A DNA stretch of 51,283 nucleotides, filler included, from Jimgerdemannia flammicorona (GCA_003990765.1; 2 parts of 2 records of this genome joined end to end with filler, not necessarily neighbours in it), one strand, 5' to 3'; positions 1 through 27,648 are shown, numbered from the whole stretch's first letter. Made by a program: numbers and translations. The notes: generated by a model not told the origin, from the letters alone.

Positions 1-844
1 GGGGGGGGGGCGGGGAGGAGAGCGACTTTAGATGACGATGAGCTGCTTTAAAAGAAGTATACCAATTTTCTCGCATCGTAAGTTGTTCGCCACTTATCTG
101 GGGACCCCGTCAGACGAGGCTTTGCTTATTATTTTATCTTTATTTTATTTTTTTCATGTTTTCAACAACTATACGTTTAACCCCGTTCGTTGACTATACG
201 ATTATACTCCTGCCCTCTTCCATTCATCGAAGGAAGGGGTGCAATGTCCCACACTGAAACTAGCGTAACTAGACGAACATCCAAGGGGAAGGGTTAGATG
301 GGATTGGTGGTTGAGAATCTTCGTTTGGATGATTGCTATAAGATCCTCGATGTTGAACTACGTTTTTGTTTGGAGGTGCGAGCAATCAGCTCGCCACAGC
401 CCCCACCAAGCCATCGGGTCTCCAATCTGCGGTTGCGTCATACCACGGCACAAAATGTCAACGTAAAACGTCCGGCCTGTGAACGAATCTGGGCCCGATT
501 CGTTCGGAGCGTGCACTTGATTCACTAGAAGACTACACCTGCAAGTTCGACCATCATTCCGACTCGCTTGGCCTGCAGCTTCGATGAGCTCCAGCCAGCC
601 ACGAACGTTGAACAACTCTTCAACCAGAACAAACGACAGAATGAACAAGCTTCATAACCTTTTTCACAAAATATTATATATTGATATACTCGAGCAAACA
701 TAGATAATATACAAACATAAACTGTGCTCACGATGTTCACAACAAGCTATTTCCCACTGATGCACAATGGCTTTTCAAAAAGATATGTATGAAGCGTGAA
801 TAATTTGGAAAGCCACCGTTCCGGCCGCAACCATCGTGCCTTTC

Positions 845-3800
845 TTACGGAGACCGGATCATGTTCTCCAGCTCCACGCGGATGCCCGCGGGACTCCAAT
901 TGTAGTCAGAAGGAACATTAGGGCAGGGAAGCAGCAAATACTCGCTTGCTATTGTCGCTTGGTAATTATAGAAGATATACTCCCTCAGTTTGAGACGGTG
1001 AACGATGCTGGGCAACTTCCAATCTGGATAGACACTTTCGAAAGCAGTGTATTTGTACGATTTCTCTTCATGTTTCATCCAGTGGTCTCGTTGAACGTTC
1101 CGTGTGCACGATTCAGCGGCTACTGTCATGTCGCCGCTCCAATATACGCCCATTAAACCCTCCGGTTGATGGTACGTGTCATGTTTCAAATTGTCAGCTT
1201 CATGATTGGCGGAGAGTATACAGGGGCTCCTGCATCTTGGACATGGATGGCCACACCGCGGACGAATATCTTGCGAGTTTTGTCTGTCGATCAGGTATTG
1301 CAAGACTTTCGAACACAGCTCCTCAAGCTTGGCAGACGAAATCGTGGGCATGTGCTCGCCTATACGATTCGCCACGTCTTGTTGGACTCTATCGAAGACG
1401 TCCGGTGTCTCACCGTCGCACGAGTCAAAATCGCTGCCACCGCTTTGTACTTTGAGAGACAGATACGTAGTCATTAAAAGGTTCGCTAATGACGTTCGTA
1501 ACGCACTGAGAAACTTGGCCGCTCGTTGGGATTCCGCTCGTTTTGCCTTGACGGCTGCATCTTTCAAGCTGCTGATTACTTGGCTTCTAAATAAATTCCA
1601 CTGAGGCTGCAGAACTGATTGCATCGTCTTGCAAATGAGATTGTGTTGGACCTTCTGGTAATGCTTACGGCTTGCTTCTGGGTTGAAAATCTCCAAAACT
1701 CGCGACTCCTCGCCTCGTTCGAGCATGTTTAGCAGGTCTAGGTCGAGGTGAGCCTGCATAATCTTTGGGTCGAGCACCCATTGTCGGGTTTTGAGAACAG
1801 CGGCAACGAAAGGAATAAGCTCGTGTTCGAAAGCATTAGCCATGTGCAGCTGGAATATAGAATGCAGAGTTGCCGTGAGGAGCTCGGCCCCTGCAACGCC
1901 TTTGGAGACGTTGTCAAAGAAAATCCACATTTGGTTTTGTTCGTTCTTGAGGCGCACCGAAACACTGTTGTGCATGTCCCAGTTGTCCTGTGCGGTTTTC
2001 AGTAGGCTGACAACTAACGAATAGGCGTGCTCGTGTCCTTTCTGTCGCAGGCCCTTGCTCGCTCCTCTTAGTATTAAATTCGTCGAGTCTATTGCCTCTA
2101 TGACAAGCCTATCAGAGTAGCGTTGCACCGAATGTAGATCGCGATTGATTTTGGCAGTAAGGCGGTTCAGAACCTCTTGCTCATCACTTCGCGAATTGGG
2201 ACCAGAGACCCAGCTGTGGATGATATCATTCACGACAGTCACACCTCTTTGCCAGGAAGATGACAATTGCGATGCGCTCTTGGTAAGCTTAATATTGTCG
2301 GCAATGATACTCTGGTGATTCTTATAGATATTCAGCACAATCTTATCAACCTCGCTAGCCATAGGCGGATGAGCTCCTTTGGCTTCTTGAACAAAGGCAC
2401 TGAAAATGTCCTCAAACATTTTTTGTTTTACCTCCTTGCTCCCCTCGCGGTTGTGCCGTGCCTCCAGTGTGTCACCTTGGAAGAGCTCCCGAATTATTTT
2501 TCTCATGCGTTCCTGATACTTGGCGACATAGGCACCAAACATGCACTGGTTGCTGATAATGTCGCCAAGCATTCGATTCCAAAAGTTCTTTTGATCCAAT
2601 AGTACCCGTTCCCAACGGATCTTCTGGTCGGTTTGCCATTTTTCCCAGCGAGGCTCGGAAAGGTATCTGCGAATTCGCTTGTCGAGCTCGGTGATCTCGT
2701 ACTCGACTGAGATTTCCAGTCGGCTCTCAAACTCCTTTTGCATGCGGTTAACCAACTCTGCATCCATTGCCGCCTTGTTATCGCCGTGACTCACAAGTTC
2801 CTTCTCGAGTTTGCTGAAATTTTCGTCGTAGTGTTGTGTCAGCGACCGTTGCGCCTCCGACATCTTCTTCTCGAGGTCGTCGTGAGCAACGCGTTCAACT
2901 GCTGACTTGAAATTGAGTTGGAAGTTGGACGACAGGATGCACTGCCATACCGTCTCCAAATAGTCTGAGAATGTCTGAATATTTCTTGTGCGCCATCCCC
3001 CAGATGCCGAGGAAGTGAGTCGAGAGTGAATGTGCTCGCGAAGTTGCATCAAATCTTCGCCATATTGCGTAATGGGGAGATCGTTAGGTGGTGCGTGATC
3101 GCGTTTGATGTTTCCAAGCACTTTTATATCGCTATCTCCGTCCTTTGCGGCGTCATAACGGAAGTCTCGGAACGCGCTGTTGACACTCAGCTGTGTTGAA
3201 GATACTCGGACCCCATCATCATAAAGATAATCGTCTTCCCTTTGTGTCGCTGCTGTCTCCCCAAGTTTCGATACCTGTTCAAATGCCTCCCGAAGAGCCA
3301 AGATAAGGCTTTGCTTGATTTCTGAAAGCTTTCCAGTTTGAGTGGTATCGATACGTGTGTACACAAAAAACATCATGGAGCTGAGTTGGCCACCGTTGCT
3401 CTCGGCCAGCTTCGAATCTTGATATGCCGATAGAACGATTGGCAAGATTTCCTTAACGGCTTTGTCGTCTTCGCCGTTGTTGACGACAATCGTCGCATCG
3501 GCCGGGAGAAGTGCAAATGTGGCCATGCGGTTGTCATGGATCTTTAACGTTAAAATGAAAATGCGTCGTTAACATGAGCTGAATTGAAGTACATTATTTC
3601 CACATGCGACGCGTCAACAACGTACCTCACTTTCAGGTAACTCCGAATATTCGGGAGCTCGAACACCCTCGGTGTCCAGCAAAAGTATGTAGTCGTACTC
3701 TGCGCGGCCTTCAACTTTGAGAAGCTGCATGTTGACGCCACGAGTGCACTGGCCGACGCTCGTGCGCAGGCGAACTCCAAACATGATATTCAACAGCGTA

Positions 3801-6800
3801 GACTTCCCGCTGCTCTGTACCCCCATCACGGATAGCACGAATATACGAGGTCGGACTACGGAACGACCATTGTCGCATCTACTGCCCAAGTCTTGCTGTA
3901 CCTCATGGCTCGGTAATTCTTGCTCAATAAGCATGGTCTCCAATTCTCTCAAGACCGCCTGAATCCATGGCAAATTCATCATGCCTGCATCTCCGTCCAT
4001 AAGTTCGAGCGCAAATCCATCTATAAGATGCTGCGCCGCTAAGCGGGGAAGCAGGGAGTAACGATTCGGCTCAGCAACATACAAATGGCTAACCTCGCGC
4101 CACAGGTGCTCCAGCGAGACGACGGTAAGGTTGTAACTTTGTTTGGCTCGTCGCCAATGATCCATGAGTCGTGTCAAATTGTAGCCACGGCTTGAGTAAT
4201 TTCCTGAACGCCTTCGCTCTTCCTCGCATGCCGTCCATGCCGCCTGTTCTGCTTCCTTTCGCTGCCGTAACGCCGTGGCACACTCTAAAACGAGCAATTC
4301 CTCTAGCTGACGGATACCTAGCACGCGCGACACGGGGTTTGGCTGCCGAAGAACTCCAATAAACAGTCGGACAAACTCATGCGTGGACACGTCGTAGGCT
4401 TGTTCGTATCGCCTTCTGCGCTCGGCATCAATTTCCTTCCCGATCCTCGTCTCCTCGCCGGGGTTGTTGCGGTTTTTAATTGAGTGCAAGTTGTTCACGG
4501 CAGCGGCTTCTTTGACGTAACTAAGCTGCATTTTGAAATCCTCCAGTCGCAGCTTTTCAAAAGGCTGCCGCTTCACAACTGACTGGAGTTCTATCAGATT
4601 GACAGGATCAACATCAAGAAGGCCGGGCAATGAGAAGCGAGCGAGCGGAGTTCGCGAATATCCTTCGACCTCTTTGATTTCCTTGGAAAGTGCCTTGGAT
4701 GCATTGACGAGCAATCGCGCGATCTCAGGAACTGTCGATCCGAGATTTCCAGTGAAGCAACGGTGCTTGAACGGTTTGGTTATGACCTTTGACTTTTCCG
4801 TGATCGGGCTTGGTATCCATTTCACAATGCCTTTGATGGTGTGTTGATTGGGGGGGCTAAATGCGCGGGTTGGATCGGGATCGCTCTCAACTAACAAGCA
4901 ATCTGTATATTGCCGCAGGAATGGCCACAGCGGCGTGAAATCACCGATGACGTGAAGAACCATACAAGGTGTCGTGGTGCGTGCCTGCGTGCCAACGTCG
5001 GAAGACACAATGAATCCACACCCAAGTTCTGCCACCGATGTGCACTCAGTAAGCTTGCCGCCAATAGTGTTTCGATCGATGGCGTGCACAGAATGAATGT
5101 TGAACAGCTCCTTCATCCACGCAGCCGTCTGACTTTGCTCGATCGTTCTGCACGAGATGACGGCGATACGCAGCATGGATGTATCCTTGGATAGGCGCAC
5201 AGTACCGCCAACTGTGGTAGTCTCAATGAAGCTCAAAGCAGAAATGTTGAACATGAAGGGCGAAGAGTCACGGTTCGATGGTGTGATGAGAGGCACAGCG
5301 TTACGGCGGTTGAGCAGCAGGCGAAATATTTCCATCTTGCCAGTCACGTCGAACGAGTTGACAACGCCCAGCATTATATCGAAGAGACTGCTGACAGGAA
5401 CAGTTGAAGATGAAACTAAGTTTTCTGCCTCGTCGAACCAGTCGAAAGAAGTCTCATCTTCGGCATTTTCCTCTTCCATATGTTCTTCTGTATGCTCTTC
5501 TATATAATTGGCCGTGAGAGGCGGTAACGCAAGATCCAGCCGATGGCGCAGACAATCCAGAATGTACGTATCTGCTGCCTTCTGTGCAAGCACCAAAGGC
5601 CTGTCAACCAACATGGACGAGTAAGAGTGCAATGCTGCGGATAGTGACGTGCTTTGTCGTTCAGTGCTGCTGTTGTTTTCGTTTATGTCATCTTGAGCGA
5701 TACTAATCCAATCGGCCTCCTCTGGTTGACGAGCTCGTGGCTTGGTCAAATTAGCTTCTGGATGCGTGATATTCCTCACATCTTCAATCAACGAATGCAT
5801 GCCTTCATCAGTGAGCGGTACAAGAAACCCATCTTCAGTCCAGCCGTAGTAGTTGATGAGTCTTTCTGCGACGGCCGCGTGTGAACCTATCGATTGGGGT
5901 TGTTGTCCAATGTTTTTTGCCAACACTTCCGACACGCGCTGATTTAGTAAAGTCAAGTCGATGGCTTGAACACCGTCCATTATCTCCGATTTCAGACAAG
6001 AAAGAGACTCGGCGAGATCGCTAATGTCGACAGACGGAACATCCCACGAGCGAGTTGTGTCGCCTACTTTCGAATTACCTATCACGCCGACCGGTGCTAC
6101 AACAATCTTGCGCAGCTTCGGTGTCAACACAATGCTCGCCTGTTCAAGTTGTTCTCGTGTGGTGGCGTCAAATACCTTTCGAAGCAGATGGTGCGACTCC
6201 GGTTTACCTTCAAGCTCAGCGACTCGGTCCAAGAAGTTTGGCAAATAACTGCGCTGCATTGCTTCGAGCAAGGTTCGACCAGATTCATATCTGCAGCGAG
6301 AAATAATATAGAATATTGTAACAAGAGTTGTCATGAGGTCACTATCTGTCGCGGATATAAGATCCAAGTTTAGCGTCTTAACTAGTATTCTATCCAACTC
6401 ATCGAATGCTTCGTTGAAAGGTAGCCCGCACTCAAAATTGCGGATTTGGCTGCTGAGATGGCACGCATTGTTCTTCACCGCATCGGCAATCAAGGCATCC
6501 ATCTTTGCGCGCTGTATTTCAAACTGCACAATCGGGATGTAGTTGTATTGGCCAGCATTCTGGAGCCACGCCGTGCGAAGTAGCTGAGCCGCAGTGCGAA
6601 TCTCCGCGCTCGAGTCATCTTTCAAGAGGTCCCAGATTGGCACAAGTGAACCGAAGTCATCTCGATCGATGATATGCCAGGTGCGGTTGTTGGACTGCAG
6701 CACTTTGTAGAAAAGATCGGGATTCGTGGTGTTCGGTCCATGCGCCTCGGCTTTCAGACTAATTTCTGCATCGCGTCTTGCGTTTTCTGAAGTCGCCGTC

Positions 6801-8605
6801 TCAGATTCAAAGTTGAAGCTCGTATGCTTAACAGAAGTGCCGGCTTCGAATCCAAAGCCAGAGAAACCGAGTGACTCCTCATTGCTTATCTGACGACCGG
6901 CCAGAGTTTGCAAAATCGAAGCCTCCGTTTCATCGTTTGTCTTCACCTCGACGATGCGCCACAGGATGCCTCCGAGGTGATGCATACCACTCGAAACATG
7001 CGAACCGTATTCGGAAAGAAATTTACGTGCCCGCTCCATGTTGATCACTGCACGTGCGTCGCCTTCAGCTTCTCTCGACAACCTCATCTGATCTCGGGGA
7101 ATACAAAATGCTTTCGTGTAAAAAAGGTTGAAGTGCATAGCGGCCGCGGTTGCCGTTAGAGTCTTCGAGTTCCCGCCACCAAAAACACATCCGTCCGCTC
7201 TCAAGCCGGAAGCCAAGGTGTAGCCAGATGATATCGCGATACGACGGAATTCCGCGCCCGTCTCAGCGCTTGAGAACGATACCGAATCACATTTGTTGGC
7301 GTGCAAAGGAGGGACCAGTTGGCAGTAAACTGGCTCGCGCAACAACGGACGTCTAGCTTGGTGGCCAAGTAATTCAGGATTTCCGCCAAAATACATGCCG
7401 TGGAGGGCCAGCCCGGCGCTGCATCGTGCGATGAGTTGTTCGTCCGGCTCGACCGAAACTGACGAAGGGTCGAGATCGGAACATGCACCAATCAAATCGT
7501 TCTCGATGTTGCTGAGGCTGTTTTTCAGCGCCGTAGAGTCCCACTCAGTTGGCCAAGTAAGACCGTCCGTCTTAAACATGCGATGCAACTCTTGAACGCG
7601 ATCTTTCAGATTGTCTCTTTCGGTTGGGTGATCGGTGGCCGCTTCAATTTTGAGATCTCTCACGGTTTTTATTGCTTCCTCGACGCGCACCTTGTTCGCC
7701 AGCCTGCTTTCTTCTGCGCGATTCTTCTCCTCTCGCGCGGTAGCGGTCTCTTCGTGAAACATACGAGACAACTTGCTCTTGGCCTTTGGGTCGCTCTCTT
7801 CAGCAATCAATTGCTCTATGCGACGTTGGTCGATGTCGTCAATGCAATTGATACCTTCACTTTCGAGTTTGTCGGTAAAAATAGGAGGAAGTTTGTATTT
7901 GAAGACGGTGCACCTGATATCGTTTCCGGCAGCCCATAACTCGGTTATGATTCTTTCATTGACCGTGGAAGTACCGCCGCTCGATGATATTTGCCACTGA
8001 ATGTCCACCCAACGTTGCTGCTGGAGTTGCCTTCTTGTTGGAAATCGCCGACAAAACTCGTCGAGCCAGGAGGGATTGCCGACACCTGCAGCCTTTAAAA
8101 GGCCACGAACTTCGAGCCGATCTTTAAGCCGACTTAGCGCCGCAGTCTCAATACCGAGCTCCTGCGCTCGATTCGAGTCTTGAAGTGCCTGTGCGAGGTC
8201 ATCTTGCTTGAAAGAATAGTCCATAATGAGCGGTATAGCCAGATCCGTCATGTGGAGATCCTTCAGTAAGTCTTGGAGCCCGGGTTCAAGCGAAAGTAGG
8301 GCGGCATCGCACAACAAAACACGATCGGCGGCGCTCAACGACGAAGATTGGCCATAGTTGTCATCCTCCAAGATCCTGCGGACAATACCCGCCAATTCAT
8401 GCAACCTCTCGGGCTCGTTCATGGCCCTGTCGAGCTCGGAGCGCCAATCATCTAAATATAAAAACAGGTGATGCAAGGCGTAAGTCAATGGAATTGAGAC
8501 GCCGAATCCGAATATATATATATACCGATCTTTCAAACTATAATCACCAAGAATGTTTTCTGATGTATGAGAGCTTTCAGAATGATTATCTGGTTGTACA
8601 ATCAT
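845..8605 (-). CDS. Very large inducible GTPase (GVIN1/VLIG/URGCP-like), ~2,550 aa, with N-terminal MACPF-like segment; exons ~8605..3626 and 3541..845
   Basis: ORFs 3614..8659 and 845..3526 join through a phase-0 intron at 3625..3542 (GTACGT...TTAAAG), giving DTEGVRAPEYSELPESE|IHDNRMATFALL, which matches the VLIG pattern DTEGLRAPE...HDNELATF. Motifs: G1 GVQSSGKSTLLN, G2 GQCTRG, G3 LLDTEG, the GVIN-type LRHLWRE-like motif (LEHLWREVSHLY) and a C-terminal Cys/His cluster CGHPCPRCRSPC...HDTYHQPEGL. The 5' end is uncertain: the track start at 8659 is TTG, the first ATG is at 8605, and 8452..8525 looks intron-like. Confidence 0.9.
3542..3625 (-). other. Spliceosomal intron (84 nt) in the VLIG gene
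   Basis: Donor GAG|GTACGT and acceptor TTAAAG|ATC. The intron contains the in-frame TGA that ends the upstream ORF, and splicing restores the conserved HDN motif in frame. Confidence 0.9.
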
Positions 8606-9220
8606 GGCGTACACACTTCGATGTAGCTGCAATAAACGCTCTACCAAAATAGCGTCCAAGTTAGTATGTATCTTTGCGCGTCAAATAGATTGTCAGCGAA
8701 TGCAAGTTCTTCACTACTCACATTTGTATTTGGTTATGAAATCGAATTGCTTTCAATTTTTAGACAGAATGTAATGTTCAGAGTCCAGTTCCAAGATCTC
8801 AGTCCCGCGAGAATCCCTGATCCACAAAAGCCCTCAGAAAGTTTTTTTTTTTTATTGAGCCTCACCAGATATACTAACGTAGCTCTTTAGTTCTTCAGAG
8901 CCTTCAGAGTCCTTCTAGGCCGTAACGTTCCCTAACAGGTATTGTTCGTGATATCGTTCGAGTCTTGCGCACAGTGTGATACGAATTCTTGTTATATATA
9001 GTTGTATAATAGCGAGAAATCTGGCACACTTAGTTGGGGATATGTTGTCCTTTCGAACAACGAAGAGGCATAATTTAGATTTGCAGCTCTCATAAATAGA
9101 GCTCGCATATGTGTGGGAATTCTTTACACGACTCACGAAACCTTGGGTTCAGATTGCAAGCCACAATCGACAATCGCGAACTATACCAAGATCAGTGCGC
9201 TGATATAAGCGACTGTTTCT

Positions 9221-9361
9221 CGACGCGACATAACTTTGAGTAGTGAGCTTCATTTCATGCACATAATGCTCCCAAACGAATCGAATCAATTCGACGCGAC
9301 ATAACTTACAATATGAGCTACATTTCATGCACATAATGCTCCCAACGAATCGAATCGAATT
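9221..9361. repeat. ~71-bp tandem duplication spanning the left MITE junction
   Basis: CGACGCGACATAACTT...CATTTCATGCACATAATGCTCCCAA(A)CGAATCGAATC begins at both 9221 and 9292. Confidence 0.85.
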
Positions 9362-9608
9362 GATGTCAAAAATTTTATCCTAACTTTAAAATACAATAAC
9401 TCAATGAATCTAAATCTAAATATAATATTCTTTGTTGTACTAGATTTGCCTTAATAAAGCGAATCCAATAAACTAAAATTCATTAAGTTTGGACATGTTT
9501 TTGTTGAATTATTGAATTTTGAAAAATTAGGTTCCAATCGAATATTTCAAATCGAATCGAATTGGGGTCAAATTCGATTCGCTTCGATTCGATTCGTTGA
9601 GAGCACTA
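9334..9608. mobile_element. Non-autonomous hAT-type DNA transposon (MITE), 275 bp
   Basis: ~26-bp TIRs: TAATGCTCCCAACGAATCGAATCGAA on the left versus TAGTGCTCTCAACGAATCGAATCGAA as the reverse complement of the right end. Perfect 8-bp TSD CATGCACA at 9326-9333 and 9609-9616. AT-rich noncoding interior. Confidence 0.85.
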
Positions 9609-10227
9609 CATGCACAATTGCCCCTCTGAAATACAGTGACACTCTTGCTTAGCCAACCGAATCAGACTGTCACTAGTTGGGTATATGCCGAAATTAAAGG
9701 GGTAGGGTAGTCAGGCAGGCCCTCAGCAAGTGATACAAAGATCGCAAATTTACTATCTAACCACTAAAAACAATAGAGAATGCTTACTTTGCTATCCATA
9801 TTATTGTAGGAAATGAAGAGAGCTCTCTACACCAATAACCTATTCCCTCTGAGCAAGGTGCCAGAAGTATTGTTGCTTGCTTGATCGTAAAAATGACGCT
9901 CTCGGCTCAATCCAGAAGCGTAATCGATGAACGCGAACAGGCTATAAATTGATCGCTCAAATGGGCTACTTTGGTAATGCATAGCGTTTCGATCCGAAAA
10001 GCCTAGTTCGATTTGGAGCACGGGATCTCGACATGGCTCTACGATCCAACCCAGTGCGATAATCCAGTCTGACACAAGAGAGTATTTGTAGGCATGGGAT
10101 GATAGGATTTACGTGACCTATCATGTGTACAAGTTCGAATTGGAATCATTAATAGTGTGTTCAAATCAAATCCGACCTTATTTTTGAGCTAATGGTCTGT
10201 CAATCAGTCCACGGGTTCCAAATAAAG

Positions 10228-10306
10228 TTCCGCAAATTGGCCTGATTTAGACACGAGTCATCGTCCACAATTCCGCAAATCGGCCTGATTAGACATGGGT
10301 CATTGT
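10228..10306. repeat. ~43-bp imperfect tandem duplication
   Basis: TTCCGCAAATYGGCCTGATT(T)AGACAYGRGTCATYGT at 10228 and 10271. Confidence 0.7.
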
Positions 10307-11129
10307 TTAACAGTCACGTTTATCATCTCGTATCGTTTGGCCCCAGTGAAAATAGTGCGTGAATAAAGGTGTCAAAAAATGAGAGATTGTGCTGATGTAA
10401 TGTTATCACACTGAAAATGAGACAGCGATTTCTCTACATTTCGACTTTTCTATTCTTTTCGCATTACATAAACTTAACTTTTGTGGATGTATATACGCGC
10501 GGTGTGAAGTGGGGCTAAGGGTTTTACTATGAAATGCATCTTAGCCGCCTGGCCTGAAAAGCGACTGCAAGCATTGTCATTCCACAACCGGGCTGTACCC
10601 AGCACCTTTGGCAATGTCGATCAATGATCGTTTGGTATGTTTTTACATGATTGACTGAACCAATCATGTTCTTTTATGCCTTTTTATGCCTCGGTACCGT
10701 CGGCACCGCAAGGTGTCCCAAATTTTTGCAGGACGATACAGGTTTAGCTTCCCTACTGCGGTAAGTAATTTGATTCCATACCCATGTTCCGTTATTACAC
10801 AAACGTCTCCAAGTACTTCGTCTTTGTTTCACTGTCATTGTTGTAAGGGGTTTCAGCTGAATAGGGTACAGTCGGAATTTGCGTGCACTGAACGGCTAAG
10901 GGCTGAATGACGGCTAAGTGCAGAACGACTCGACTCTGCCTGTAGTGAAAACCCCCCATAACTGCGGAACTGTGTGTGACGTTACATACCGTTCAAATGA
11001 TATAAACAATTATTTGTCCAACATCTTGGAAATCATGTGTCATGTTGCTGTGGCACAGATACGCTCCATAAATACCTCCGTCAACAGATATGAATGGATC
11101 GTATTTCTCTCGAACTATTTCCAAAACAA

Positions 11130-12248
11130 ATGAACAACTTCACCAAGGGTTACGCTCTGTTGATCGGCACCGGTGTAAACGCATCCGGAGAGCCTGATCC
11201 TGCCTACGACAGCACCATCAACGATACGAATTGGCTCCACGAAATTCTGACGGACCGTAAACGGTGTGCCTACAAGCCAGAACAAGTGATCAAGCTGACC
11301 GGACCAGAAACAACTCGGGGCAACATTCTCGATGCAATGGATAGTATGTCCAGGGACGCCAACGAAGACTCCACCGTCATAATCTTCTTCTCTGGACACG
11401 GCGGGCGTGCCAAGGATGACAAAACGTTCCTCATTCCATTTGGGTATCAAGACGGTCAAGACCCAGCAAAATTCGCCGTCGACGCAAAATGCCTCAAGGA
11501 TTGTCTGGCCAAATTTGATGTCAAAAAACTCGTTCTCCTCATCAACTGCTGTCACGCCGCCGGCGTCGTCACCGAAACCACCTTTACTCCCACGCTTTCT
11601 TCCAATGAAGAGCAAGAGCAAGAGCTTGGCTTACGAAACATGGTTTTGAACGAGAGTCAGATCAATAGGCTCAACCAAGGAACCGGGTTCGTCGTTATGT
11701 CGTCGTCGCTTGCCAGTGAGGTGTCATATACTGGATATCTGAGGAACGTACGTGGCAAAGAAAAATACAGCGCCTTCACCATCGGTATCGGGAATGCTCT
11801 GTCTGGCCGTGGTCAGCAAGGAGATGGCTTGGTATATGTCACCGACCTGACGTCGAAATGCCGATCATTCGTGGTGGAGAAGACAAAAAATAAGCAGCAC
11901 CCTTACTTCAAGCTCTGCTGTGACGATTTTCCGATCGCCTATTACAATGGCGGCCTTTCCACCGGCGCATCCGTGCTGGGAGACGATTTTATAGAGGCAG
12001 AACCTGATGAGGCCGAAGCGGCGCCGGAGCCGGCGCCGAAAAGAGTACGGCAGCAGCCGAATATAATAACGACAAACAATATCAAAAACATGAAAGTCGG
12101 TGGCAATGCGTACTATGCACCCATAACCACTACCGTTACAGGTGGGGCTATACATTTCGGAACAGTTAACCATGGGCCAATTACCAATACAATTAGCGGT
12201 GGGTCATTTGGCAATGGGGCATTTAACAGTGGGAGTAACCCCCAATAA
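11130..12248 (+). CDS. Caspase-family (peptidase C14, metacaspase/orthocaspase-like) protease with C-terminal amyloid-like repeat tail
   Basis: Intronless ORF with GYALLIGTG first strand, IND, catalytic His in FFSGHGG, catalytic Cys in LINCCHAAG, and p10-like SSSLASEVSY / SAFT / QHP. The ATG at 11130 has an A-rich context (CAAAACAAATG) downstream of CATAAATA (11067). An upstream in-frame ATG lies at 11094. Confidence 0.9.
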   Translation: MNNFTKGYALLIGTGVNASGEPDPAYDSTINDTNWLHEILTDRKRCAYKPEQVIKLTGPETTRGNILDAMDSMSRDANEDSTVIIFFSGHGGRAKDDKTFLIPFGYQDGQDPAKFAVDAKCLKDCLAKFDVKKLVLLINCCHAAGVVTETTFTPTLSSNEEQEQELGLRNMVLNESQINRLNQGTGFVVMSSSLASEVSYTGYLRNVRGKEKYSAFTIGIGNALSGRGQQGDGLVYVTDLTSKCRSFVVEKTKNKQHPYFKLCCDDFPIAYYNGGLSTGASVLGDDFIEAEPDEAEAAPEPAPKRVRQQPNIITTNNIKNMKVGGNAYYAPITTTVTGGAIHFGTVNHGPITNTISGGSFGNGAFNSGSNPQ

Positions 12249-12714
12249 TTGGGAGTAGGTTTGCTGCGTTGTTGTTTCTCAAATGTATTGTTATTTATGT
12301 AATTATAAATATACCCACAATTACGATATTGCCACCGAAAGTTCCTTGAGCGCCTGGTACACTGTTCAATGTCGACAGTATTTTTATATCTAGCCAACGG
12401 GGCTAGTTGCGGGTCTTTTCTCGCATAGGTTTGGTCGCCTGAAACCGGTAAAATCGAGAAACCACAAATGTGTCATATTGAGCAAGCGAACTTCAAGCAG
12501 TCGAAGGGTAAGCAATACGATCGGACTTATACGTCAAGCACCATGTCAGATACACATTGAAATGCTTCCAAAACTTACGCGACTATATCGCTCACGATAA
12601 TCTTTGAGATTTTTAATAAATTAACAGGAAACACGACTTTACGATCGACTCCACACTACGCCAGAGTATGTAAAGTGCGCACTCCACAATCCAAACTCTT
12701 AGCTTCTAATACTT

Positions 12715-12717
<3 letters not shown>

Positions 12718-12746
<29 letters not shown>
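12718..12746. repeat. Poly(T) tract
   Basis: Uninterrupted T homopolymer. Confidence 0.9.
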
Positions 12747-13339
12747 CATCACACTCGTTCATTCTCATCAGCCCGCAACTCTCGGTGTGGCCGCTTAAAA
12801 ACCGAACTTCCGCTAGGCACCAGTCTCGGCTACTCTAGAGCCCCTCCAATAAGCCGCGAAACGATATATTTTTTTCAAGGCTTCTGAGCTCACGTCGGCC
12901 ATGCGGAAAATTATCAGTCGTTCTCCTTGAACCATTTTGGTATGCATTGTACACCAATCTCTTACTGTCTAAGAGCAGGGAATTGCGGGAATTGCGGGAT
13001 CTCTAAGCGGGTTTGGTGTGCTAGAATAGTTGTTTGGGCGTAGTTTTGTGAGCGTCGTTTTATGGCTTTTCTGTGTGATATTGAGGTGTACGCATTTTCG
13101 GATAGCATGTCGGCTCCATTCCTCGACTCATTTACATGCCCTACATTCCGCTTTACTATTCAAAGTATTGTTTACACAATTCTGTGAAATAGTCGGACTC
13201 CAGCAAATTGGAACAATTCGCGCGCCGTCGTAGAAAATGTACAGAAATTCATTGAACGAAAACCGCACATAGTAGGTCATCAACCTTTGATTATCTCCGG
13301 AAACGAACCTCCTTCCTTCAGTACGGGGGCCAGGAGCCA

Positions 13340-13790
13340 GGATGAGCATGCGGGAGTCGGGCACGGCGACTACCGGTAGGGGGTAGGATCGACTATCAGC
13401 ACGGCAAGGTCGGCAATAACGACGAGCAGCATGAGAGGACCGGGCACAAGGACCATCGGAAATCATCGATGCTAGATGTAACAATAAGCAGCAAGGGTGA
13501 GGCTAAGCGCGACGACCATCAGTACGGGAGAACCAGAAATGACGATGAGCAGCACGGAAGAAGCGACATTTGGTAGCGCGGGAGGGCCGGGCATACCAGA
13601 ATAACAATTAGTAGCGCGGGAGGGCATACCGGACAACAATGAGAGAGGTTGGGAGCAAATGACAATCAGCACAAAAGGAGGGCCAGGCACGATGACCACC
13701 AGCGCGGGAGACGGGCACGCGGGAGACGGGCACGCGGGAGAGCCGGACATGACGATATGCAGTATGGGAGGGCCAGACTATCATCATGGG
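13340..13790 (+). repeat. Degenerate ~30-bp minisatellite (consensus ~GACGACCATCAGCACGGGAGAGCCGGGCAC), including a 14-bp triplication CGCGGGAGACGGGC
   Basis: Recurring GAC-GAY-NAN-CAG-CAC-GGG-AGR-RCC-GGG-CAY units, for example at ~13390, 13511, 13541, 13691 and 13751. Confidence 0.6.
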
Positions 13791-14473
13791 GGCTACGGTT
13801 TATTGTGGACTTCGAAAATTCATCGAAACGAGCGAAATTTTTTGCTATTGTAAATTATTTTATCCCAGTACCATCTTCTAATCTAGCGTCGGTTAGTAGC
13901 AATCGATATATTTTGTGTTATCGGATTGTCCCGATACGGTGTTTATGTTATATTCCTTTTTCTTCTACATGTATGTATATACAGGACATGAAGCGTGACA
14001 TAAAGATCGACACGAAAGATATTGTTAGCAGCCTCGACGAACTTCACGGCAAAGTTGGTCTGCCTAAGCTCCATGAGAATACAATCCCGCTACTCTTCAA
14101 CTTTTCCAATTGACACATATCACCCCGTACGCGTTACCAACGCACCAGGTCTGCGCCGCCACATGAGTGTGCTTCGAGAACCACAGTTCGCGGGTGGCGG
14201 TGGCGGTGGCGGTGACAGTGGCAGTAGTGATGAGGCCAAGACCGGTTCGGCTCGTATCTCAAAGTTGATAATTTTCCCGAATACTTTCTTGGGACTAGCG
14301 CGACAGGGTTTCGTGTGTAAATAGTTGTCGCATCTACAAGCACAGCAAAGAATATATATATATATATATATATTACATAAGAATGAAATAAATAACCGTA
14401 ACAATTCACTATGTAAGCGCTCTTTCTGATCAGGGAAATTTAAATTACGCCCCACCGTCAAACGTTGACATGA

Positions 14474-14537
14474 CGAAACCAAACCAAACCAAACCAAACC
14501 AAACCAAACGAAACGAAACGAAATCAAACGAAACCAA
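14474..14537. repeat. Pentanucleotide microsatellite (ACCAA/ACGAA)n
   Basis: Direct reading. Confidence 0.9.
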
Positions 14538-15486
14538 ATCTACCTTCTCAATCACGCCCCTATACATTATTCACGGCTCTGCAAAGCGCGACCAGCCCTC
14601 GATGACACATCTGAGACGCATACGGTAATCACCCGGTAGGGCTTGCGTGAGTGATGTCGGTGGGCGTGAGATGCGGCATCGGCAACAGGGAGGTGAAACG
14701 AAGCCAGAATCCGAGTATAAGGGGGTGACAGGAGGAGAGAATGAAAATATTAATTTGAATGTATATATTGCTAGGGTAGCTTACGCTCTCATCTCAGCTC
14801 GCAATATATATCCTTAGCTTAAATCCAACACAATGCACACACCTCGCCTTTCATCATAGGGCTCTAGGATACCATCTACCCATTCAGAAACATTTGACAT
14901 ACCTCAAATCGTGCCACCATATTCGTTGGGCTCGCGACCGGATCCTGCGCGGCCATCTTGAACGGAAAAACTCTGGAGGATAATAAATTTCGGCTGGAAT
15001 GGGGCAAAAGCATAGGGAGTGATTTCGGCATTGTCATTGCAGCAGGGTGTATAGGGTGGCCGTGGAGGGCATTCTGGGGACTTCAGCGGCAGTGAAGTGG
15101 GAATCTCGTCGGTCGGAATTTCGACGGAGCTACTTCGGCAGAGTGATTTCGTCCATACTGAACGTCGATGGCTTCAGCAGCTTGCGTTTTCAGCAGGGGT
15201 CGATTTATTTGCGTGACGTTTAGATACGTCATGTGACGTTTGCAATGAAATCAGAGCGCCTTTGTGTTCCTTTCTAGTCAATGGTATTGGCGGGAAGCAC
15301 TGAGCCTACAAAGTTCTAATCCATACTGGATGTAGCGTATTATATTTTTGTTAATAGTTGATCAATACACAACCCGCAGCCGTAGCATACCTCAAAGATC
15401 ATGTGCGTATTGTATAGGACTGGGCAAATTGAACCAGAGGGTTTAGCAGGTCACACAGTCAATTTGCCCCCCAACAGACCGTGATT

Positions 15487-15920
15487 ACTTTTATCCAATA
15501 CCAATGAAGACCAACCATCAGCGTGTTCTCCTATATTATTCCCGTCGCGGTATCCTCGAGCAAGGTACCAAGACGGTAAACATCAGAGGCGTGCGCCGAC
15601 AGAAGGTATGCAAGCCAGCCGTACAGACCCTCTGAGCCGTGTAACATGTTGATGATGCCTTCGCCATTATCGCCATTAATTTTCAACTGTATACTTTCAT
15701 AATATGTATCCAAATACAACTTTTCTGCTATATATATATAAAATAATAATAATAAAAAATACATATATAATTATATGTCACTGGGCTGGCCCAACCACTT
15801 TTATCCTAATTTCGGATAAAGACGAAGAACCACACACACCGCCAACCATCAGCGTGTTTTCCTATTCCTTGTTATCCATTCCCAGGGCCGCGGTATCCTC
15901 GAAGGTTACCAGATGAGCTA
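15487..15920 (-). pseudogene. Degenerate fragments of a paralog of the neighbouring kinase, partly duplicated
   Basis: IINMLHGSEGLYGWLAY...ASDVYRLGTLL (~15550-15660) matches kinase TINMLHGLDGVYGRLAY...ASDIYCLGTLL. The block CCAACCATCAGCGTGTTYTCCTAT...CGCGGTATCCTCGA occurs at both ~15511 and ~15842. Confidence 0.75.
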
Positions 15921-16488
15921 TGCACGTCGCGTCGGCGTTTTCGACGTTGGCGGAGGCGGGCCACTGGGGAGCGCGTTCGTCGGGACGGAGCGGAGACGCG
16001 AGGCGGCTAGGTTGGCAGAGAAGTGGTGGAGGCAAGCGATGTGTTTTTTGGTGGCCCCGGACGGAGGTCGTGGGGAGCTGAGATGTTTTCCACATTGCCA
16101 GAGAAAAAGGCTGTTCCATCAAACGAAATTATGGAAAAGTTCTCATGGCTCCGACATACTGATGTCAATCAACGTCACCCATGTTATATTAAGCGGATTA
16201 TGGTGTAGCCCGTTCGTCGTCAATTCATTAAATTATACAAAGTAAGGGGATACTTCTAACGAATAAATATAAATATTTGTTTATTGTCGCAAAGGAAAAG
16301 TTGAGAATGCTAGATGGTACAATTTGGCTAATCATTGGGATATTCCGTCATGATAGATATGTTTGTTGGATGTACCCTCACACTATGTAAGCCAAGCCAA
16401 CGTCACAAAGACAAGGCGGCGGCCAAAGAACGCCGAATTGAAGCTGATATTTTTGATACACGACTTCGCTGAGTCAAAGCTGATATAT

Positions 16489-17971
16489 TCAATATAAGAC
16501 TTTGCCGATTCGAAGCCAACACATTCGATACACTACTAAAGCCTCGCCGGCAAAAATGAAAATATGACGAGTAAGTATTGATTTGAGCGTGTGATAAGGA
16601 AATTTGAGAATGAGATGAACATCATGCATATGGGCGAAAACATACCTATTGTCCTCTGTGGCTCCCAGAATACTTAGATTCCTGAGAGAGACATACGTGT
16701 GAAATTCACTGCTCGTAGTAGATGCTTCGCCAAAGACAAAAGATGTGTTTGTGCTTGAAGCCTTGGATTGAGAAAAATGCAATTGACGTCTCTTATTTAT
16801 GAAGGCGCTTGTCTTGCGAGACAAAGGTAACATCAAAGATGACACATATGGTGCTTGATACAAAAGTTCATCCCTGATAAAAGTCCCAGACAATCGCTCG
16901 AGGGATTCATATAAAAAACTAGCGGTAGGTCGCCTGTCCGGGTCAACTTTCCAACAATTGCATAATGCCCGTTCAAGCGCCACTGGTATATGCGGTATCA
17001 TCTCTTCTCGCAGACAATTATTTGAACTGGCGATACCCCGTGGAGGCACACCAGTTATGAGATGCCACAGCAGGGTACCAAGACAGTAAATATCAGAGGC
17101 TTGTGTATAAGGCGCGCCGTTGAAGACTTCCGGCGGAAAGTATGCAAGCCGGCCATAGACGCCATCCAAACCGTGTAGCATGTTGATGGTGCCGCTGAGT
17201 CCAACGTCGATGATGCGTAGCTGGCGCCATCTGCCCCTTGTGACAATGTTTCCTGGGTGAAGGTCGCCATGGATGACACCTAGTTTATGCAAAACCATGA
17301 TACCTCGTGCCAAGTCGACCGCAGCAACCATAATTTCTTTCCAGTTTGAGAAATCAAGCGGTTCTTGTTCAATGTTTCCATTCGCGCACTCCATGACAAG
17401 GAGATAGTTGTTTGAGGTAGGGTCGGGGTTAGGAGAGAGTCCAATCACAGGCATTGTGATGGCATCGCCAACGGATGTTTGTGTATGATATGAGATGTGT
17501 GTTGCCACCATCAGCTATACCGACAAGTAGAAGGTTCGGGATCAATAATAAGATACAATGTAGGTATCAATGTTGGAGAGAAAAGCTAGGATCCTGCAGT
17601 CAACTCACCTCGTGGGCCATATTGATATCAATCGCTTTCAATGCATATTTCCGTCTAACGATGGCTTCCTTATGTCGAATGGTATGAATGGTTGGAAAGG
17701 CAAAGCCAGTCGGCCACTCGACGATCCCAGTGTATACGGTCGAGTATCCGCCTTTCCCCAAAACCTTCAGGTTGCCACTGAATCTTTCAATTGGTATCCA
17801 CACAAGGTACTCGAGGAGCTCGGGAACATCTGACCTTGCCAGGTGGAAGCGCAGTTGTTCGTCGTTGCTCGGAAAGTTGAGTTTGTTGGCTTGTATCACC
17901 AAAGCTCGCTCTTGGGCAACGATGCCTTTCGCAAAGAGTTGCTTAAACGTTTGGAGTTTGTCGGTATTCAT
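16489..17971 (-). CDS. Tyrosine-kinase-like (TKL) protein kinase; intron 17608..17515 and a probable second intron starting at 16645
   Basis: WIPIERF, Gly-loop LGKGGYSTVY, YALK lysine, alphaC Glu at the splice (NMAHE|LMVATH; GTGAGT...TATAG), catalytic loop IHGDLHPGNI, DVG (DFG position), YFPPE, SDIYCLG, CWKVDPDRRPTA. The 3' end is uncertain because of an AG|GTATGT donor at 16645. Confidence 0.85.
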
Positions 17972-20900
17972 GATTAAGGGTTGGTTAATATTCACATTCG
18001 ATGGATTAAAGAAAATATGTCCGACCCATGCGCGGTAGCTTATTACATTATATAATGCAGTAATTTATTTTATGCCCAAGTTTGTATACTCAAAGATCAT
18101 GTGTGTATTGTAATTAAGTAATTGCGTTGCAATAGAAATTGATGACGTTGATTGATGACGTAACACTGAAGATAGTATAAGCCACAAATTACTTGATAAT
18201 CGAGTTGCATAAAAAAGTTTACAGATGTAATTATAGGAAAGGTGAACTGATATGGTTATAAATAAATAGGATATAGGCGTGCGGTGAATAAACAACAGTG
18301 ATGTAGTTCAAACATTTGAAAAAAAAAAAAAAACCTTGCTGAAGTGACAACGGTAGTCGCGTGACGTTGACATTTCTCAGCCACCTCAAGAAGCTTCTTC
18401 ACCCTCACAATCGTCTTGTCTCTCCGCACTGACCAACCTTTCCGCGAGGTCCCACAAGCGACCCGTTGCTGCATTGATGACCATCTCTAACGTCGCTCCT
18501 TCTCATCGCACCCATGAATGGCGACATGAGGGCCTCATGGGATGGGAGATAGAGGCATGGAGTGAAATACAAACGGAGAACGAGGGAGCTAAGGTGAGCT
18601 CTTCTGGTATATATATCCTGTACGGTGGCAGCACTCTTTGTTTATTCCCGTGGCTCACCAATGTTCAATTATTTCTACGTCTTGATACAGCACGCATGGC
18701 AGCCGAATTGCTGAGCGAGTTGCTTAGGATAATGGAGGAGCTTTATTAGGCACGTATCCACGATTACCACCACCTTATTACCGGATATTATCACACACTT
18801 GATCTAAATTGTAACGCCTATTCCCGAAACAGCTCGAGAACAAGAAGGCGAACCGTGCAAACGACCTAGGTGACGCTCTCAGACGAAGAATATCGGCCCT
18901 CCGCTTCTAACAACATATCACCCATCTTGCCTCTCTAAAAAACGCCATGACTGCCATCTGCACATTACCTCCATGCATTTGGACACAGCAGCTACCGCTC
19001 CTAGTTCGGCTCAAGCAGCCGTACGCCGGAGACTGAGTTCGAGTTCCACCGGTAAGACATAGGCAGTTTGGTCTTGGTACTAAACACAATCTCTATTGGT
19101 ACTCGCTGCTAAGCTCTTCCACCCTTCTTCCCTGCAACCCACTTAATGAACCTCCTACGTGCGATCAGGAGCATCGTGATGGTGCCGGCGGGCGCAGAGA
19201 ACGTTACGGCATGGGGAACGGGGCAGGCGTCGGAGGCAGATCTGGTGTGTCTTCGTTTGTTTGGATTTGGTTGGGACGTGTCAGGTCCTCGTTCTCGAAA
19301 GAGCTCACAGGCCACAATCTCTCATATCACAGGACCGCTTCCTCGCCTCAATATCGGCTGCTCTCGCTGCCTATGGCAACTATGCCGATGGGGTCGACCG
19401 ACTCGGACGAACCGTGCGCGAGATGCAGGCGAGGGTTGTCAGTGGAGGGTTTTGATGTTATTGGATGTCCGCTTGGTTGGGCTTATTGAAACACTAATCA
19501 GAAAAACCCATATGATCTATTCGGTGGTGATCGCAGAGCCAAGCCTTCGAATACCAGTCTCCAGAGTTCAGGATCCAACCTAAGTGGGTTGTATAAACTG
19601 TTCTTGCGATTCCGACATTATTCAGGGCTAAAAATTTTGATCGTTATGCGATAAGCGTACGGGCGGAGATGTTTCGGTTTCGGGTGACGTCGCCTGGTTC
19701 GCCAAAAATTTTAATGGGCAAACTCCTTGATTAATCCCATTCCATTCGCATGGGTATAAATAAGCTCAGTAATTCGGTACTTTTTTCCGCACACAATGAA
19801 ATGCATAGGCTTCCAGATTTATTCTGGACTGCATGTAGCCCTTTGCATAAGAAGGCTTCCAGGCTTAAAAACCTGAAAGGCAAAATGGGTCCGAAAAAGG
19901 AGTCCCCGGGCCAATGGCGCTCGTCTGTGGCATACGTTCCCAACCTTCTTTAAAATTAGAATTAAACGAAAAAAACTCGAAAAACTTATTTTCGATAGCA
20001 AACGAAGCCTTTTGTTGACCCCGAAATGGATATACGAGCAGTCGCGTCTAAGCCTCAACAACTTCGAACTTTATTATTGAAATTGTTTCGCTTACAGCGG
20101 GAATCTCAACACCACGAGGTTGTCGGGAGGAATAGGTGGGTGGTCGTAGTGTGTGTGTTTCGGACTGTGAACATAATTGCGAACGTAAGCAGTCTCTTAC
20201 ATTATCCTTCATTTACTCTACAAGACATTCCGGCGGGCCAATTCACGGACGATCAGCTCCACTCGTCTCCCGCATCGAGCATCTCATTGCGATGTTAAGG
20301 TGAGCAGGCCGTGCACCTCATCGGCAGTCTCGTCGATAAGGGAGGGTTGGGTACGAGGAGGAGGAACAAGGTTTTAGATTCGCTTTTGTTTGGCGCGTTG
20401 CCCTTGTGGATGAGTTTCCGGTTTCTAATGAATTTCTAATCCTCTTCAGATGTTTCAGACATCAACACTCTTCGCCAATATCTCATGTGAAAGTGCTGTG
20501 CCATCCAGCCGGAAGAGCCGGGCCACGATGCCCCCGTCGAGGCCGTCGAGGCCATCGAGGAGCGCAAGGAGCGCCACGACTGGGCTCTCGACAATTTCAT
20601 CGAACTGGCCGTCGGGTCGCGGAGGCGGCAAAGTGGGCGGTGGGTGTTTTTTCTTTCCCGTCTTCGCAGTGGGGTGGGGCGAGAATCAGATAACTGACAT
20701 GTTTGTGGGCACTCTTCTCGTCTTCATATTCTCGGGCATTCAGGACCTTCTGATACCTACCCCTCGGTGACACCTACTGGCTCTTCTCGAACGACCTATT
20801 TCGGTCGCCTGACTCGCCGAACATGTGGCAGCTGTGCTTGATCTTCCTGACGGACGTGCAGAGTAGACAGGTTTGAGGCGGGTGAGGGGCGAGAGCGGGA

Positions 20901-24175: not shown

Positions 24176-24234
<59 letters not shown>

Positions 24235-25592: not shown

Positions 25593-25692
25593 NNNNNNNN
25601 NNNNNNNNNNNNNNNNNNNNNNNNNNNNNNNNNNNNTTAATTAATTAANNNNNNNNNNNNNNNNNNNNNNNNNNNNNNNNNNNNNNNNNNNN
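25593..25692. other. Assembly gap spacer (N44-TTAATTAATTAA-N44)
   Basis: Exactly 100 bp with a six-frame stop linker inside the Ns, so it is artificial. Confidence 0.97.
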
Positions 25693-27560: not shown

Positions 27561-27648
27561 TATATATAGTACTCCTCGGTAACATTCAGGTTACACAACC
27601 CTTTGGCAACACTTTCGACACAGTTTCTGAAGAAAAGCTACTAGTATT

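Follow-up and report, generated by a model that had tools for sequence, protein, structure and literature searches.

The locus described here raises the question of whether two genes that stand head to head in Jimgerdemannia flammicorona, a root-associated member of the Endogonales (Mucoromycota), act together as one defence or cell-death module or are simply neighbours. The window, by which is meant the whole stretch of DNA analysed, is 51,283 nucleotides (nt) long (GCA_003990765.1; parts of two records joined end to end with filler). Its minus strand carries a gene for a giant GTPase of the VLIG (or GVIN) type with a predicted perforin-like MACPF domain, and its plus strand a gene for a bacterial-type C14 caspase that ends in a repetitive tail. 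A MACPF-VLIG fusion, of which no printed description was found, and a bacterial-type caspase whose tail is amyloid-like are here brought together in the genome of an early-diverging fungus. An initial annotation had proposed that amyloid-triggered activation of the caspase could lead to processing or regulation of the GTPase. The reading that is somewhat favoured here is a different one, in which these are two separate genes of immune or cell-death type, divergently transcribed and linked by no evidence beyond their adjacency; we infer that they are independent.

The coding sequence of the giant GTPase runs from 8605 to 845 on the minus strand in three exons (8605..8548, 8451..3626 and 3541..845, the last including the stop codon) and was derived from open reading frames (ORFs) together with splice joints in RNA. 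Two minus-strand ORFs, 3614-8605 and 845-3526, are linked across an 84-nt intron (3542..3625, minus strand, GTACGT..AAAG) that lies inside the GTPase domain just after its DTEG (G3) motif. Transcript evidence throughout consists of contigs from four public runs (X1 to X4) compared with positions 1-19000 of the window, and stretches left uncovered in RNA, e.g. most of 15.2-18.4 kb in X1, were not counted as evidence. Exactly 84 nt are skipped at 3542-3625 in contigs of X1 and of X3, the latter a root metatranscriptome, and 85 nt are skipped in X2; X1 and X2, both labelled 'RNA?', were accepted as RNA-derived because this intron is skipped in their contigs. Fragments of both genes, 95-99% identical, were seen in two root metatranscriptomes. 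A protein of 2558 amino acids (aa) at NCBI, P0060, corresponds letter for letter to the translation of the window with the 84-nt intron alone removed. That model translates a second, in-frame GT..AG intron of 96 nt near the N-terminus (8452..8547, minus strand) as 32 hydrophobic residues, which the X2 contig removes. When corrected the coding sequence has 7581 nt and is in frame with a single terminal stop, specifying 2526 aa, and the first in-frame ATG is unchanged at 8605. The 5' untranslated region (5'UTR) contains further introns at 8641-8721 and 8750-8865, as seen in X2 and X4 contigs. The highest 19-aa Kyte-Doolittle mean in the protein is 1.45, and no transmembrane segment or signal peptide is present; lacking both, the protein should be cytosolic.

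Its VLIG/URGCP-type GTPase domain (3233..3853, minus strand, spanning the 84-nt intron) was detected by the Pfam family PF25683 with 128.1 bits on the main exon ORF, P0001, and 156.3 bits on P0060, the gathering score being 55. The P-loop GVQSSGKS and the DTEG motif are invariant in 11/11 aligned sequences, and weaker matches to RHD3, dynamin and GBP fall on the same G domain. The best database match of the giant ORF, at 99%, is a hypothetical protein of J. flammicorona, and proteins 99-100% identical have been deposited under two J. flammicorona locus-tag series on different contigs. The rotifer Adineta steineri has the nearest relative outside the species, with 35% identity across 94% of the query. 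Rotaria, the oomycete Saprolegnia diclina and several Daphnia are also represented among the 40 relatives found, followed by VLIGs of vertebrates, sea urchin and flatworm, and no other fungus is named in this set of 40. That a rotifer provides the nearest match and no second fungus appears would suit an origin of the gene from foreign DNA in the assembly, but this is exceedingly improbable: the gene shares one contig with the caspase (whose eukaryotic paralogs all come from Endogonales), a kinase and retroelements, its short GT..AG introns are spliced in RNA contigs that include those of root metatranscriptomes, the deposits are duplicated under the two locus-tag series, and 35% identity is far from what a recent contaminant would give. 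Contamination with animal DNA was rejected on these four grounds.

The MACPF domain occupies approximately residues 383-691 of P0001 (6533..7459, minus strand) and is very probably real. Three lines of evidence agree on it, and it was because of this agreement between homologs, conserved residues and predicted fold that the call was accepted despite a sub-threshold Pfam score. The first is that three of the nine family members scanned pass the PF01823 gathering score of 21.5 bits (P0007, 29.7; P0008, 30.1; P0020, 29.4), and all three align with the window protein across the MACPF region. The second is that, in an alignment of this region from the window protein and seven relatives, G195, S196, H197, G201, G206 and G207 are invariant in all eight sequences. 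The conserved YGSH...GG stretch reads YGSHVSSGMHHLGG in the window protein; compared with the MACPF signature, which we take to be Y/W-G-T/S-H-F/Y-x6-G-G, it has Val in place of Phe/Tyr and seven rather than six residues before the GG. The third is the AlphaFold2 (AF2) model, in which the best prediction for the region has a mean predicted local distance difference test (pLDDT) score of 72.7 and shows a bent central beta-sheet with two flanking helical clusters, which appear to sit where the membrane-inserting hairpins of MACPF proteins lie. A Foldseek search with this model returned 50 matches at E<=1e-3, all of the listed rows being of MACPF/perforin type and the best being pleurotolysin B (4oej, E 2.7e-10); alignment with VIA-align to solved MACPF structures gave sequence identities of 11-17%. 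Several observations weigh against the assignment. PF01823 scores 16.4 bits (E 0.01) on the window protein itself and so lies below its cut-off, only one of five models of the region is confident (the other four have pLDDT 41.7-51.5, from an alignment of eight rows) and the TM-scores to solved MACPFs are modest, at 0.3-0.4. The description of the gene in the initial annotation, as a giant GVIN-type GTPase with a MACPF-like signature, was upheld on both parts, the GTPase by PF25683 above its cut-off and the MACPF by homologs, residues and fold.

How the two domains might work together is suggested by the N-terminal halves of relatives. P0020 joins a MACPF domain to the vertebrate-type URGCP domain. 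A scan of metagenome contigs from the Joint Genome Institute (JGI) gave 16 VLIG loci, most with flanks of less than 4 kb (~72 kb in total, which in part are the genes' own 5' parts), and among the 16 the loci L009-L012 are versions of one locus type. In three of the loci (L002, L006 and L013) the encoded protein begins to align with the fungal one at about residue 113-180, and the alignment takes in the MACPF region. Loci L009-L012 hold instead a single ORF of 2064 aa (L009:8180-14371, plus strand) in which Lipase_3 (43.2 bits, cut-off 22 bits) lies ahead of URGCP_GTPase and which matches residues 1075-2537 of the fungal protein; L008 has the same lipase-VLIG arrangement split in two. Because a class-3 lipase replaces the MACPF domain in these metagenomic relatives the N-terminal module is exchangeable, and both versions act on membranes. 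Neighbouring genes in the metagenomic VLIG loci encode a methyltransferase, TMEM120, a septin, a chromo-shadow domain, a helicase and one trypsin fragment.

For human GVIN1, the formation of a coat on cytosolic bacteria was reported only recently (10.1101/2025.03.24.645074). By analogy, the VLIG part of the fungal protein would self-assemble in a GTP-dependent manner on a target membrane, and this assembly would position and release the MACPF part so that the membrane is perforated. The target could be an intracellular bacterium, e.g. one of the Mollicutes-related endobacteria that Endogone can harbour (PMC5729711), or the cell's own membrane in regulated cell death. The N-terminal module would then be an exchangeable membrane-attacking effector with the GTPase as its regulator, a model that the exchange of lipase for MACPF fits. 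Pore formation and coat formation, like the amyloid templating considered below, are proposals; what the data establish is how the genes are built and that they are transcribed, together with their domains and catalytic residues, the tail repeat, the bacterial sister pair and the absence of conserved linkage. An alternative is that the MACPF domain is non-lytic and binds or remodels membranes in the manner of astrotactin-type proteins, and that the whole is a dynamin- or atlastin-like membrane GTPase with no part in immunity. The weak RHD3, dynamin and GBP matches and the low MACPF Pfam score lean that way; against this the best fold matches are to lytic proteins (pleurotolysin B, MPEG-1, C8, C9 and perforin), two helical clusters flank the bent sheet at what seem to be the hairpin positions, the alternative module of the relatives is a lipase and hence also membrane-attacking, and the sole VLIG of known function is, according to the same preprint, antimicrobial. 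A non-lytic role is accordingly judged unlikely, and a membrane-attacking protein under GTPase control is preferred.

Compared with vertebrate GVIN1 and VLIG-1 the fungal protein belongs to the same G-domain family, falls in the same size class of ~2400-2500 aa and has the conserved C-terminal region; it differs in its N-terminal MACPF domain and in lacking the URGCP domain PF25496 of vertebrate-type members, and interferon control is not applicable in a fungus. The lytic MACPFs with which its model aligns (pleurotolysin B, 4oej; MPEG-1/perforin-2, 6u2l; perforin, 3nsj; C8 and C9) are secreted or lumenal and either stand alone or carry small binding domains, whereas the fungal protein has no signal peptide, is fused to ~1800 aa of GTPase and is only 11-17% identical to them. 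No description of a MACPF-VLIG fusion was found among the literature matches listed, those for Jimgerdemannia and Endogonales included; among them the VLIG/GVIN and MACPF terms co-occur only in one review of fish transcriptomes. A 2025 review of regulated cell death in fungi contains no occurrence of MACPF, GTPase, metacaspase or Mucoromycota.

The caspase gene (11094..12248, plus strand) encodes 384 aa from its first ATG and was recognised from its ORF, Pfam and RNA; unbroken RNA contigs run from 10746 to ~12332, so that it is intronless. A deposited record of 372 aa, P0044, matches it from residue 13, which is read as M in the Atlas. The caspase fold covers residues 19-283 (11148..11942, plus strand) and contains a His102/Cys153 dyad, residues 160-184 forming a disordered loop, according to alignment and the AF2 model. 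Peptidase_C14 (PF00656) matches with 57.2 bits, its cut-off being 21.4. H102, in an SGHG context, is invariant in 13/13 aligned sequences, C153, in CCH, is kept in at least 90%, and outside the loop the block means of pLDDT for residues 19-283 are mostly 66-95. Among solved structures, metacaspase-1 (7qp0) is a distant match (E 3.4e-6). The NCBIfam model NF047832, for caspases of the EACC1-associated type, gives 63.7 bits (E 1.6e-17), and because this is under the curated cut-off of 140 bits the fungal caspase is considered related to that type and not a member of it; Pfam and NCBIfam scans found no EACC1 or EAD domain in it.

Sixteen relatives of the caspase were identified, of which the five other named eukaryotic ones are all from J. 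flammicorona or Endogone (34-71% identity) and the remainder bacterial or metagenomic. Counting this gene, J. flammicorona possesses four or more caspase paralogs. The bacterial relatives are 30-39% identical and some of them carry C-terminal EAD1 or EAD7 adaptor domains, whereas those from Nostoc have a coiled-coil C-terminus instead. A search of prokaryote genomes yielded 602 candidate stretches, 249 of which were confirmed as relatives. Details were taken from the best 80, for which the main sources are filamentous cyanobacteria (Nostoc and others), Chloroflexota, Sorangium and Streptomyces. When 45 same-strand neighbouring ORFs of such relatives were scanned for domains, vWA (VWA_CoxE), iSTAND and AAA_5 were found, the last of which we read as MoxR-like. 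In two cases, Streptomyces (L042:3382-7053) and Variovorax (L044:2658-7125), a caspase-EAD1 gene follows a GAP1-N1...EAD1 gene, and in Variovorax a Double-GTPase gene comes before both. Neighbour sets of this kind are assigned to the NTP-dependent conflict systems that Kaur et al. are said to have set out in 2020. The caspase clade, whose members outside the Endogonales are bacterial, is in bacteria the protease arm of NTPase-based conflict systems. The fungal protein shares with these bacterial EACC1, EAD1 and EAD7 caspase effectors, its closest sequence relatives, the placing of a C-terminal module after the protease, and differs from them in its score below the NCBIfam cut-off, the lack of EACC1 or EAD, its eukaryotic host and the presence of at least four paralogs.

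A quick maximum-likelihood tree of 69 rows was built from 59 of 93 bacterial caspase ORFs, six Endogonales sequences and four metagenome proteins, the other 34 bacterial ORFs being left out for a hidden Markov model (HMM) score below 120 or a length below 200 aa. The six Endogonales rows form one clade, with a support of 100 in the Shimodaira-Hasegawa-like approximate likelihood ratio test (SH-aLRT), which is sister to a caspase from a Dehalococcoidia metagenome-assembled genome (L017; SH-aLRT 99) and is nested among bacteria. It is a point against reading a transfer from this topology that the tree was midpoint-rooted and held no other eukaryotic caspases. A bacterial origin of the fungal caspase family is likely but not proven by these sequences.

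What follows the caspase domain is a G/N/T-rich C-terminal tail, residues 325-384 (12066..12245, plus strand), which is a candidate signalling or amyloid-like motif. It contains two adjacent 19-aa units (12120-12233) that align with a score of 49, against 22.8 +/- 4.4 for shuffled tails, 0/300 of which reach it. Each unit has hydrophobic residues at positions 2, 6, 11 and 16, Gly at 8, 9, 14 and 19 and Asn at 17, a layout that would be expected of stacked beta-arches. In the monomer AF2 model the tail is disordered (pLDDT 22-38). A related tail core persists in paralogs (53-74% overall identity) and in Endogone, whereas the paralogs P0049 and P0050 have a hydrophobic segment in place of it. 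In its position, at the C-terminal end within the last 60 residues, the motif lies where effector motifs do. Of the initial annotation's C14 protease with a doubled amyloid-like tail, the protease and the doubling were borne out, while 'amyloid-like' is an interpretation of the tail and not an observation.

The Dehalococcoidia sister provides the model for what such a tail might do. On a contig of 4.9 kb (pair at L017:1460-4542, plus strand) its caspase gene, 3559-4542, overlaps the end of an upstream gene encoding a 706-aa STAND-like protein of AAA_16/NB-ARC-like plus TPR architecture (TPR_12, 1.6e-35; NB-ARC, 9.3e-5, just under the cut-off). A 37-aa motif is common to the C-terminus of the caspase and the N-terminus of the NTPase, with a score of 68 against 22.0 +/- 4.3 and 0/1000 shuffles reaching it, and this was the top of all comparisons between caspase C-termini and neighbour N-termini for 93 caspase ORFs. 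From its sequence this is a bacterial pair of the amyloid-signalling type with a C14 caspase as putative effector, so classed because its arrangement is the one that defines NLR-associated amyloid signalling motifs. On that model the tail of the fungal caspase would be a homotypic amyloid-like signalling motif, and a sensor NTPase encoded elsewhere in the genome would cluster and activate the protease by proximity.

That the fungal tail is a signalling motif is put at about an even chance at best, and a number of searches count against it. The fungal tails show no significant likeness to the motif of the Dehalococcoidia pair (30 against 26.6 +/- 4.7 for P0003, reached by 76/300 shuffles). Within the 51-kb window regular expressions recovered only the tail itself and Smith-Waterman comparison with six-frame ORFs gave nothing above shuffles, so no partner came to light there. 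The tail and those of five paralogs match no Pfam motif family at E<=10. When 67 aa of tail were compared by phmmer with 1.84 billion representatives, the matches were the protein itself and three tandem-repeat proteins, and in a word-indexed search with residues 325-384 for longer proteins, of low power, none of 294 candidates reached E<=10. The phmmer result is no evidence of absence, since a motif of ~30 bits cannot reach E<=1e-3 in 2.4e11 residues and would be undetectable; the three tandem-repeat matches were rejected as spurious, being cadherin-like repeats with summed stretches. Three other searches were also negative: tblastn of the Dehalococcoidia NTPase against the window gave matches only at E>5, in the Atlas the tail had no feature match that could be used and its structure rows had TM-scores of at most 0.36, and there was no NLR-type gene among 43 window ORFs scanned.

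Much of this would equally be expected if the tail were a low-complexity disordered extension, i.e. a linker, a localisation or degradation signal or a self-cleaved peptide, on an ordinary regulatory protease of metacaspase type. The missing Pfam family and partner, the disorder in the AF2 model, the variation of tails among paralogs with the hydrophobic segment of P0049 and P0050, and the non-significant likeness to the bacterial motif all speak for such an extension. Set against it are the internal 19-aa repeat far beyond chance, its pattern, which suits stacked beta-arches, the persistence of the core in paralogs and Endogone, and the fact that bacterial relatives have adaptor or effector modules in the same position, which in the Dehalococcoidia sister is a motif common with a STAND NTPase. 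A plain disordered extension is thought rather unlikely, and the signalling motif is carried forward as the preferred, if tentative, reading of the tail.

As in the fungal HET-S/NWD2 and bacterial Bell/BASS pairs, the effector, here the fungal caspase, ends in a short motif rich in G and N, and the prion domain of HET-s has two pseudo-repeats, as the caspase tail does. The Dehalococcoidia pair fits the scheme of NLR/effector amyloid pairs, with a C-terminal motif shared with the N-terminus of the adjacent STAND/TPR protein. The fungal effector departs from that scheme in being a C14 caspase instead of a pore-former of the HeLo or Bell kind, in its host in the Mucoromycota, and in having a tail with no partner NTPase in the window and no match to a described motif family. 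In bacteria BASS motifs adjoin CHAT metacaspase domains, according to Dyrka et al. (10.1101/2020.01.06.895854). The words caspase, C14 and Mucoromycota do not occur in a survey of NLR motifs in fungi (PMC9815663).

Whether the two genes are coupled has to be decided from their arrangement, their distribution and what is known of comparable systems. The initial annotation had them as two nearly intronless genes diverging from a gap of ~2.5 kb, and this was confirmed at those positions, 'nearly intronless' being roughly right. The divergent intergenic region (8606..11093), delimited by RNA joints and splice dinucleotides, contains 5'UTR exons of the GTPase gene and the 5'UTR of the caspase gene. 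The start codons are 2488 nt apart, and with the 5'UTR of the GTPase gene reaching at least 9023 and the caspase contigs starting at 10746 the gap between transcripts is at most ~1.7 kb. At 9267-9581, within this region, contigs of X1 and X2 match but continue into unlike sequence on both sides, which suggests a dispersed-repeat fragment. The immune or cell-death character ascribed to both genes is likewise supported, by the MACPF domain, the VLIG family, the conflict-system caspase clade and the motif pair of the Dehalococcoidia sister.

If the two genes formed a module, the caspase, activated through its tail, would cleave the MACPF-VLIG protein and thereby free or license a pore-former; in a variant, the GTPase coat would serve as the platform on which the caspase is activated. 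Gasdermin and its protease follow the same logic. The fungal pair HET-Q1/HET-Q2 has the same arrangement of a pore-former gene beside a protease gene, with a gasdermin fold in place of MACPF and HET-Q2, a subtilisin-type enzyme, in place of a C14 protease. Cleavage has been shown for that pair (PMC8851545); for the present one it is a proposal. Several observations favour such coupling and so count against independence. The genes are divergent, with at most ~1.7 kb between transcript ends, and each of the four runs has RNA contigs of both. In NCBIfam the caspase comes nearest to the EACC1-associated type, with a score of 63.7 bits under the cut-off of 140, and in bacteria EACC1-linked caspase-like proteases cleave a linked latent pore-former (PMC12642450), which sets a precedent for caspase and pore-former modules. 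The pairing of a caspase with a GTPase system has bacterial precedent too, because the GTPase-centred Streptomyces and Variovorax operons hold GAP1-N1/EAD1 and the latter also a Double-GTPase. Finally, the ~380 N-terminal and ~1800 C-terminal residues around the MACPF domain could be autoinhibitory.

Against coupling stands, first, the distribution of the genes. The linkage check proposed with the initial annotation, run as a C14 HMM search of the 16 metagenomic VLIG loci, found none at E<=1 (0/16), with the window as positive control at 1.6e-154; flanks that are short, and in part redundant, make the test a weak one, and to that extent it does little for independence. In the reverse direction no VLIG match was found in the best 80 bacterial caspase loci (0/80). 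One MACPF-VLIG gene was found in J. flammicorona against at least four caspase paralogs. Secondly, the two proteins have no adaptor or motif in common: the tail compared with the GTPase scores 36 against 31.1 +/- 3.8, a value reached by 25/200 shuffles, which is no likeness. Thirdly, the partner of the bacterial sister caspase is a STAND NTPase and not a GTPase, and no cleavage site can be named in the fungal protein. The proposal that an amyloid-triggered caspase processes the GTPase has no direct support, there being no tail partner in the window, no conserved linkage and an imbalance of paralogs; processing of the GTPase by the caspase is on the first two counts unproven, albeit with a precedent in the bacterial modules. 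A cleavage or platform module is therefore regarded as unlikely and direct functional coupling of any kind as improbable; the fuller proposal, of one cell-autonomous fungal defence or cell-death module, assembled from components of differing origin, in which an unlinked sensor switches the caspase on through its tail and the GTPase is a latent pore-forming substrate or platform, is more doubtful still. Two separate genes that happen to adjoin remain the reading somewhat preferred.

Either gene is of interest in its own right. VLIG/GVIN proteins are the least understood of the interferon-type GTPases, and the perforin-like or lipase fusions outside vertebrates suggest that VLIGs regulate the delivery of a membrane-attacking effector; the MACPF-VLIG protein offers a tractable and testable example. 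The caspase, for its part, points to NTPase-to-effector signalling of the amyloid type, or at least mediated by a motif, with a protease as effector, which would add an early-diverging fungus to the Ascomycota, Basidiomycota and filamentous bacteria in which the mechanism is known. It was probably acquired from bacteria and has ties to the recently described bacterial modules of protease and pore-former. Were the two genes to act together they would be a perforin-type analogue, outside animals, of the caspase-gasdermin axis. Were the single-module proposal true, the bacterial modules of protease and pore-former would have a eukaryotic counterpart in this locus, which would also give the first effector mechanism for a VLIG GTPase, with a possible role in the control of Mollicutes-related endobacteria or the killing of infected hyphal compartments.

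Beyond the caspase lies a protein kinase gene of at least two exons (16489..18064, minus strand; N-lobe 17600-18064, C-lobe 16489-17514; Pkinase, 4.2e-21), which lies 4.2 kb past the caspase stop. It matches PK_Tyr_Ser-Thr at 2.9e-16, and its best relatives in the PDB are TAK1, MLK4, MLK1 and ZAK, with E values of ~1e-14, closely followed by EGFR, FGFR and CDPK. TAK1, MLK and ZAK are taken to belong to the TKL group, and their likeness fits a TKL-like kinase, as the initial annotation had placed ~4 kb further on. Between caspase and kinase, a minus-strand stretch at 13100-15000 is represented in RNA contigs of X1 and X2 and contains a 261-nt intron at 14642-14902 (CT..AC, i.e. GT..AG on the minus strand); no ORF with a Pfam match was found in it, and it may be a non-coding or small-protein gene. 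An ORF of the YhhN family follows at 21941-22693 (minus strand, 2.8e-9).

The sequence from 24000 to 28000 is AT-rich, with a GC content of 0.27-0.29, and includes runs of N at 25593-25636 and 25649-25692 that mark an assembly gap. Two inverted copies of a reverse-transcriptase element of ~5.8 kb follow, at 27578-33409 (plus strand) and 37872-43699 (minus strand), which are 71-78% complementary in six collinear pieces and have RVT_1 at 31321-31896. Both copies show extreme GC skew, +0.3 to +0.47 in one copy and -0.27 to -0.50 in the other, so that the sense strand is C-poor, as it might be after strand-specific C-to-T change. At 46282-47578 (minus strand) there are degenerate remains of a Ty3/gypsy-type element, with integrase zinc-binding, RNase H and reverse-transcriptase segments in separate frames. 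Outside the genes named, then, the window consists of retroelement debris and the AT-rich stretch.

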